Shown here piece after piece: positions 46,384-46,636 of a DNA stretch of 64,000 nucleotides. Each line of letters begins with the position of its first letter. Within the stretch, counting starts at the first letter, position 1. The notes below the pieces were generated by a model that was not told the origin of the DNA, made no database searches, and was given only the letters and a program-made list of their open reading frames with translations. Made by a program: the position numbers and the translations under genes. The DNA comes from Clostridiales bacterium (GTDB taxonomy: Bacteria; Bacillota; Clostridia; Christensenellales; CAG-138): contig DXWI01000013.1 of the NCBI GenBank assembly GCA_019416935.1, positions 2,351-66,350 on the forward strand, written 5' to 3'.

Positions 46384-46636
46384 GAGCCCGGCGAACTTTC
46401 GTCGGGCTCAGGCCGTCAAAAAACTAAGTTTTTTGACGGGATTTCTGCTGTGGCAGGGATATACTTGCAGGTTTGACGTTGCAAACCTGCAAGCAAGGTG
46501 TCAAAAGCAGCACACAGGTCGCTGCTTTTGACGGATTATATGGTTCTTCCTGCGCAATTCTCGTGCGCGAACCGACGGCGCGGTTTGCCCGCTGCTTTTT
46601 CAACAGACTGAGCCCGGCGAACTTTCGCCGGACTTC
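46384..46636 (+). repeat. multi-hairpin intergenic element, copy 1 (strand denotes orientation relative to copy 2)
   Basis: Series of perfect or near-perfect hairpins at 46384-46409, 46413-46439, 46464-46493, 46500-46532, 46542-46573 and 46610-46635. Homologous to the reverse complement of 51464-51730. Confidence 0.7.

Follow-up and report, generated by a model that had tools for sequence, protein, structure and literature searches.

We have found a short non-coding element in a gut bacterium which is shown to be mobile by the presence of both filled and empty alleles at three sites. We would class it as a MITE-like family that has not been described before and whose insertion footprint comprises the entire terminator hairpin of the target. 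We place its activity, either recent or still ongoing, in one gut species. As for the way it moves, we consider it probable that it is a non-autonomous MITE-like DNA transposon, for which a transposase in trans would make the joints at the feet of a terminator palindrome in its extruded form, with duplication of the whole palindrome.

Two full copies lie in the window, i.e., the whole 64-kb stretch of DNA analysed here, and neither BLAST nor the covariance model gives any further full copy in it. The core of copy 1 (46410–46609, plus strand, 200 nt; 218.8 bits with the covariance model) is non-coding, contains six hairpins (H1–H6), starts with AGGCCGTCAAAAAAC and ends with TTTTTCAACAGACT. At its left end stands the palindrome GAGCCCGGCGAACTTTCGTCGGGCTC (bracket A, 46384–46409), which is equal to the sole hairpin of the empty site in the strain contigs L005–L014. 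The same palindrome comes again after the core (bracket B, 46610–46635) with 3 differences, and the repeat finder reports this pair as 25 nt at 92%. The core of copy 2 (51502–51702, minus strand, 201 nt; 234.4 bits) has its terminal inverted repeats at 51500–51518 and 51686–51704, according to the inverted-repeat comparison. The palindrome adjoining the right end of this element (51472–51501) matches the single hairpin of the empty site in L005–L013, and the second palindrome adjoins the left end (51703–51729). Here the 27-nt string GAGCGTCCCCTTGAAGGGGACGCTCCT at 51472–51498 recurs identically at 51703–51729, and the repeat finder extends the match to 30 nt at 97%. Since an exact 27-mer recurs 231 nt apart, chance is excluded.

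In both copies the bracket pairs are direct repeats, and each unit is itself palindromic. The repeat search confirms what a sequence-only reading of this DNA had described, namely a copy-specific hairpin duplicated around each copy, including the 26-nt bracket with 3 differences at copy 1 and the identical 27-nt bracket at copy 2, both with correct coordinates. The same reading had held the brackets to be unrelated between the two copies and the cores to be homologous, and this is also what we observe. The cores share 78% identity over the 176 nt aligned by BLAST, and their substitutions within hairpins are compensatory, whereas the brackets are unrelated except for GAGC...GCTC at the stem base.

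Elsewhere in the window, the right half of the element (H4–H6, model positions 89–179) is weakly matched at 55700–55807 (plus strand; 15.2 bits, E 0.006), between the genes for aspartate aminotransferase and TrmK. The orthologous segment of L005 (2327–2512, minus strand) scores 16.7 bits. This half-match is present too in strains without copies 1 and 2, and it may be either an old degenerate relic of the element or a chance similarity.

The comparison of strains gives a direct view of the insertions. A near-identical pfk protein is encoded on many contigs of the same species, and we have compared the window with ten of these (L005–L014), which are ~98% identical to it at the DNA level. In the alignment, the core is absent from the pfk/DUF368 junction in all ten contigs and from the trpS/DUF421 junction in all nine that cover it (L005–L013), and each of these junctions has one hairpin. 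The pfk/DUF368 spacer measures 231 nt in the empty state and 457 nt in the filled state of the window, and the gain is exactly the 200-nt core plus one copy of the 26-nt palindrome. For trpS/DUF421, the corresponding lengths are 172 and 416 nt. In the sister species, the pfk/DUF368 junction also carries a single hairpin with the same stem. A third polymorphic junction in this species, LysR/ABC, is seen in ten of the GroEL contigs, with the core present in 6 and absent in 4. Its duplication is a perfect 32 nt (GAAGCGCCCGCCGGCAATGCCGGCGGGCGCTT), which consists of a 31-nt palindrome and one base that can be assigned to either the element or the target. At all three sites, each bracket matches its own empty site. 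Insertion with duplication, which the sequence-only reading had offered as one of two explanations, is borne out by the single hairpins that such close strains carry at the first two junctions. Moreover, the copy-2 insertion is found in another strain (L018), and the copy downstream of GroEL (L024) is present in all ten GroEL contigs listed, i.e., it is fixed.

The hairpins at these junctions also vary in their own right. One position of the site-1 terminator stem (46384–46409 in the window, about 11270–11295 in L005–L014) is A-T, G-C, A.C or G.T among strains, which is a compensatory polymorphism with both intermediates caught. At site 2, the loop is polymorphic between TTGAA and TTCAA at the empty sites, and in the filled strains both bracket copies carry the same variant (TTCAA in the window and TTGAA in L018). 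In addition, a sister-species contig (L139, 2908–3132) shows a 56-nt tandem duplication in the trpS–DUF421 spacer.

Searching the metagenome contigs with a motif-with-gaps pattern has yielded 8 true and 2 chance matches, and BLAST together with the covariance model has added the divergent copy L020b and the 5'-truncated copy L019b. The total is 12 full-length loci (11 independent ones and L018) and one 5'-truncated copy. The element copies are 189–220 nt long, and their cores are 75–90% identical to each other in the BLAST comparisons. In the truncated copy (L019, 2154–2337, minus strand), only the right half is present, followed by a single hairpin (GATCGCCCCGACATCGAACGGATGTCGGGGCGATC), and there is no left bracket. 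Another contig (L002, 1542 nt, Logan DRR171651) ends within the element at about core position 120; a Logan contig broken at such a place is expected because the element is a repeat. A scan of the genome contigs with the top motif of H3 has given only a chance match inside a coding region, and this motif is too strict, as the GroEL copy has 1 mismatch to it.

All copies apparently belong to one human-gut Clostridia species near Candidatus Aphodomorpha. The trpS of the window is 96% identical to that of a MAG named Candidatus Aphodomorpha sp., and the pfk homologues are named Christensenellales or Christensenellaceae. The loci on the GroEL contigs, the longest of which is from GCA_964308885.1, very probably belong to the species of the window as well. 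Wherever the flanking genes can be identified, the element is at most ~100 nt away from the 3' end of a gene. Four sites lie between convergent genes, i.e., pfk/DUF368, trpS/DUF421, LysR/ABC, and DeoC/homocysteine methyltransferase, while co-directional genes are found at two others, GroEL followed by LysR and RsgI followed by YgjP. The earlier idea that terminator hairpins between convergent genes are targeted is therefore right about the hairpin, but its restriction to convergent genes has to be given up.

Copy-specific duplicated hairpins are found in 9 of the 12 full-length loci, at 0–3 nt from the termini. The footprints in these nine loci are 26, about 30, 27, 28, 27, 28–30, 30, 39, and 32 nt long (overall 25–39 nt), where L019a accounts for 27 nt, L020a for 28, L020b for 27, L021 for 28–30, L023 for 30, and L024 for 39. 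The footprint length tracks the palindrome length, and the duplicated segment coincides with the target palindrome within ~3 nt at either end; even the A- and T-tracts that extend the pairing fall inside it. The targets are long GC-rich palindromes with short loops that serve as intrinsic terminators. With stems of 11–15 bp and loops of 2–5 nt, the nine target palindromes differ at every locus and have no common sequence beyond a purine-rich 5' edge, and no common short motif is found ahead of the insertions. The part common to the loci is the 200-nt core only.

Two other full-length copies, L025 (646–847) and L026 (733–934), have unrelated hairpins on their two sides and no duplication, and such flanks may result from recombination between copies at different sites. 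Catalogued over all copies, the duplication first noticed in the window is thus a rule, though not a universal one. In the polymorphic copies, the two brackets show few differences or none. Those of copy 1 and the GroEL copy have diverged, and the fixed GroEL copy has the most diverged pair (2 mismatches and an indel). This divergence is as expected if footprints decay with age after an insertion.

At copy 2, the description by the sequence-only reading, which was silent on the outer flank, has to be completed by 13 further bases of the filled allele (51730–51742, GCCAGAAAGAGAG on the minus strand) that lie outside the bracket. They are absent from every empty site and shared by L018. Within them, CCAGAAAG nearly repeats CCTGAAAG of the other junction, and the outer flank CTTTCAGG is complementary to each of the two. 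There are two possible origins, namely a palindrome that was longer before insertion, with a footprint of 33–37 nt, or an addition of bases at insertion; the trpS/DUF421 spacer of the sister species is too diverged to place their origin.

The terminal inverted repeats of the core are imperfect; they read AGRCCGTCAAAAAA at the left end and, after reverse complementation, AGCTTGTCAAAAAA at the right end. As written, the element runs 5'-AGRCCGTCAAAAAA ... TTTTTTGACAAGCT-3'. In three copies, these repeats lie at the extreme ends, with a length of 16–19 nt and a complementarity of 79–83%. Six occurrences of the motif GTCAAAA/TTTTGAC are found in the core, in both orientations. The alignment of 11 copies reveals six local hairpins, in which 96.4% of the cells are paired. 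Their covariation score is 0.163, compared with 0.095 for shuffles (0 of 500 reach the observed value) and ~0.04 for slid partners.

The individual hairpins differ in how far they have changed. H1 (CCGTCAAAAAAC-N3-GTTTTTTGACGG; 46413–46439, plus strand), located 3 nt from the left terminus, is nearly invariant in the 11 aligned copies, with one G-U in L020b, and the L129 copy, which is outside the alignment, has one H1 mismatch. H3 (46464–46493, plus strand) is the helix with the most compensatory changes, as 5 of its 12 pairs have changed on both sides, including single-copy events in L025 and L026. H4 (GTCAAAA...TTTTGAC; 46498–46534, plus strand) has a covarying inner stem. In L020b, a CAGAGCC...GGCTCTG hairpin stands in place of H2/H3 (L020, 7200–7245). 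The G-U pairs lean to the strand as written, with 30 versus 8 cells, but this is a weak bias of 11 versus 7 when counted by pair, which is not significant. The same CAGAGCC-loop-GGCTCTG module appears as an indel between strains at the LysR/ABC insertion (about 5660–5690 in L125, L126, L130, L131, and L133, compared with L129). Within the element, such modules therefore seem to be swapped or acquired.

No conserved ORF is found in the core. In copy 2, for example, a stop codon comes directly after the ATG, and the reading frame is unconserved because the T-run length varies between copies. No Pfam-bearing ORF fits within the element, and we have rejected the core ORFs as remnants of a transposase, since these short ORFs are not conserved. 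The search against Rfam 15 gives no match at the gathering score, and even when E values up to 10 are allowed, no hit exceeds 18 bits, which is far under the family thresholds; a described Rfam 15 RNA family is ruled out by this lack of a curated-model match. A consensus scan finds no sigma-70-like promoter in either window copy. The TTGACA-17-TATATA seen by eye in L021 is not conserved among copies and has been discarded. Outside the element, the window has two ordinary and well-supported Rfam matches, the raiA RNA motif at 8257–8469 (plus strand, 180 bits) and the bacterial RNase P RNA class A at 52924–53268 (minus strand, 266 bits).

We have also searched for an autonomous partner. Neither gene calling nor the Pfam scan shows a transposase in the 64-kb window, and none is seen among the genes flanking the other copies. 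No additional pair of termini able to bracket an IS is seen in any locus examined, where the only extra find is the divergent L020b. By BLAST, the core has no match in phage or plasmid records, and the scans of viral contigs with H3, H1, and both termini return nothing, or chance 16–17-mers only. Among the called genes, no cas genes, including cas1, are found in the window or around the other copies, and no reverse transcriptase or HUH gene is found nearby. As neither a transposase nor a partner with matching termini is found in these sequences, the class assigned to the enzyme is putative.

The MITE-like explanation would then work as follows. A transposase, most plausibly of the DDE type, would act in trans on a palindrome that is extruded as a cruciform, and would link each 3' end of the element to one 5' foot of this palindrome. 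In the cruciform, the attack points would be close in space though 25–39 bp apart in sequence, and gap repair would copy each hairpin arm to give a palindrome on both sides. The cruciform with its adjacent 5' feet is invoked because a target-dependent stagger of 25–39 bp on B-form DNA would be hard for a single transpososome. The internal hairpins and the six GTCAAAA/TTTTGAC motifs would be structures or binding sites for mobilisation, not an RNA gene. As the whole palindrome is duplicated, a terminator is left to each of the neighbouring genes, with the element insulated between two hairpins.

On the other hand, certain observations speak against this explanation. Internal hairpins with compensatory changes are unexpected for an ordinary MITE and fit folding as a single strand (RNA or ssDNA), which leaves some probability to a single-stranded alternative. 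The two copies without duplication (L025 and L026), the 13 extra bases at copy 2, the fact that IS1272 deletes the hairpin, and the failure to find a transposase or autonomous partner in the sequences searched are further points against it. A much less probable reading, yet the next in order, is that an uncharacterised structure-specific integrase (belonging to an IS family not yet described, or else similar to Cas1 or able to recognise junctions) reads cruciforms as Holliday-junction-like targets. The footprint would then be "measured" by the palindrome, and the hairpins of the element would be needed as a folded donor. If true, this would be the first natural case in which a transposon duplicates a whole cruciform target, and mechanistically it would link transposition with the repeat duplication of CRISPR. 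We regard it as unlikely, somewhat more so than the integrase, that the core is a mobile gene for a structured RNA, or that it moves through a single-stranded intermediate, and is copied into nicked terminator hairpins in a target-primed, retroelement-like or ssDNA manner, in which variable second-strand nicking would set the duplication length. Such a course would agree with the six local hairpins (96% paired, covarying above both controls), the replacement of H3 in L020b by another hairpin whose module is an indel at LysR/ABC, the existence of a 5'-truncated copy, and a footprint of variable length, as in target-primed elements. The lean of the G-U pairs to one strand points in the same direction, but it is not significant per pair (11 versus 7). 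The clear terminal inverted repeats, however, are foreign to retroelements and to IS200/IS605-type ssDNA elements, and the footprint edges coincide with the palindrome feet instead of being freely variable. There is also no consensus promoter in the window copies, no Rfam match, and no reverse transcriptase or HUH gene nearby.

Two other readings are very improbable, and to a similar degree. One is that a Cas1-type (casposase-like) integrase attacks both palindrome borders and duplicates the palindrome as in spacer acquisition. The outcome would formally equal CRISPR adaptation, with a palindrome of ~28–37 bp on both sides of the insert (PMC4940900), and casposons too have inverted termini and footprints (PMC5137440). 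Yet no cas1 is seen in the window or beside the other copies, the duplications of casposons and CRISPR are of fixed length per system compared with 25–39 nt here, and the targets here are unrelated in sequence. The other takes up the second explanation of the sequence-only reading, that the brackets are kept identical to pair and close the element; selection or gene conversion would then maintain them as a functional part of it, and the element would be a resident regulatory or insulator module rather than an insertion. The minimum-free-energy folds do pair the outer arms of the two brackets, and the shared loop variant (TTCAA in the window, TTGAA in L018) could reflect conversion; but the same G/C loop polymorphism is found at empty sites, and the closing pairing is trivial for any direct repeat of a palindrome. 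Furthermore, the brackets diverge with age (3 differences at copy 1; 2 mismatches and an indel at GroEL), L025 and L026 are flanked by unrelated hairpins, and the one-hairpin empty alleles at three sites largely refute this proposal. Nor is this proposal needed, as the pairing is inherent in a repeated palindrome. Finally, direct repeats of 25–40 nt around an insert are typical of att sites, and one may think of site-specific recombination (phage or integron attC type), where an attachment hairpin brought along by the element would recombine with its match in the chromosome. This is the least probable reading and is refuted, because the brackets are unrelated between copies while the cores are 75–90% identical. 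Such copy-specific brackets would need a different att at each site, and each bracket matches its own empty site.

Among the known systems, the closest mechanistic relative of the element is the hairpin-targeting IS1272, with the opposite outcome at the target. IS1272/TnSha1 (IS1182 family, staphylococci) also use terminator hairpins just downstream of genes, without sequence consensus, and insert at the stem foot (PMC4923244, PMC5678879); Furi et al. have reported that these elements choose terminator hairpins without sequence specificity (PMC4923244). In contrast to IS1272, which removes all or part of the stem-loop and makes no duplication, the element here keeps and duplicates the whole stem-loop, and an IS1272-type outcome is ruled out accordingly. 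At 200 bp and with no transposase, it is likened to IS1272 by its choice of target, not by its ends or by enzyme sequence. The direct repeats of the IS1182 family are reportedly 0–60 bp long in ISfinder. In the cruciform model proposed by Wan et al. for IS1272, attack at the 5' feet (pathway b) duplicates the stem-loop, and attack at the 3' feet deletes it (PMC5678879). By analogy, the outcome for our element is that of pathway b. For palindromic targets in other members of the IS1182 family, a review by Siguier et al. is cited by both of these studies (PMC4923244, PMC5678879).

Bacterial MITEs (Correia, RUP, BOX, ERIC, Chunjie and others) are similar to the element in being small, non-coding, dispersed in intergenic regions and polymorphic among strains, with inverted termini and a flanking duplication (PMC10969869). 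Four features of a MITE are found here, i.e., a short non-coding sequence, terminal inverted repeats, a duplication proven by three empty/filled pairs, and dispersed copies. However, the typical MITE footprint is fixed at 2–10 bp, while that of the element is 25–39 bp and set by the target palindrome. In addition, MITEs form one long fold-back of their two ends, whereas this element is a string of local covarying hairpins. The sequence-only reading had stated that no standard pattern fits, which is true for REP and IS200/IS605 but too strict for MITEs, as the element with its 16–19-nt inverted repeats is MITE-like apart from the footprint. An IS200/IS605-type or PATE derivative is ruled out by the inverted termini together with the duplication, and by the lack of a shared motif before the insertions. 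REP, BIME, and REPIN sequences are ruled out because the palindrome is not a family sequence and differs at each locus.

Extragenic hairpins are also recognised by structure in IS1397 and ISKpn1, which use REP palindromes, and in group IIC introns, which use terminators. IS1397 inserts in the loop and leaves a 3–4-bp duplication, and the group IIC introns are ribozymes of at least 600 nt, which are inserted after the hairpin without duplication. In CRISPR adaptation and casposons, both borders of a palindrome are likewise attacked and the palindrome is duplicated, and a cruciform has been proposed to join the sites (PMC4940900), but the repeat there is fixed in sequence and length, whereas any terminator palindrome is used here. 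IS1549 and IS1634 (IS1634 family) share the long direct repeats that vary by copy (8–514 bp, with no accepted mechanism; PMC2266710). Unlike the element here, they are full-size IS with a transposase, and their repeats are not reported at palindromes or terminators.

In the literature searched, we have met no description of a bacterial element that leaves a complete terminator hairpin as its footprint; such an outcome has been predicted only. Nearly all transposons leave a footprint whose length is dictated by their enzyme and does not vary. In the present case, the length depends on the secondary structure of the target, which implies that terminator palindromes can be reached in vivo as hairpins or cruciforms, and that the integrase reads the shape of DNA rather than its sequence. 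If the enzyme is identified, it could give a tool for sequence-independent, structure-targeted integration, and it would make the cruciform model testable, both for IS1272 and for CRISPR adaptation. The element can be used as a strain marker, and it is a cause of contig breaks in metagenomes. With both genes keeping their terminators, its insertion is unusually harmless to the host, which may explain its spread in a compact genome. Overall, since three sites are polymorphic among gut strains that are 98% identical, the element is a recent or current source of strain variation.
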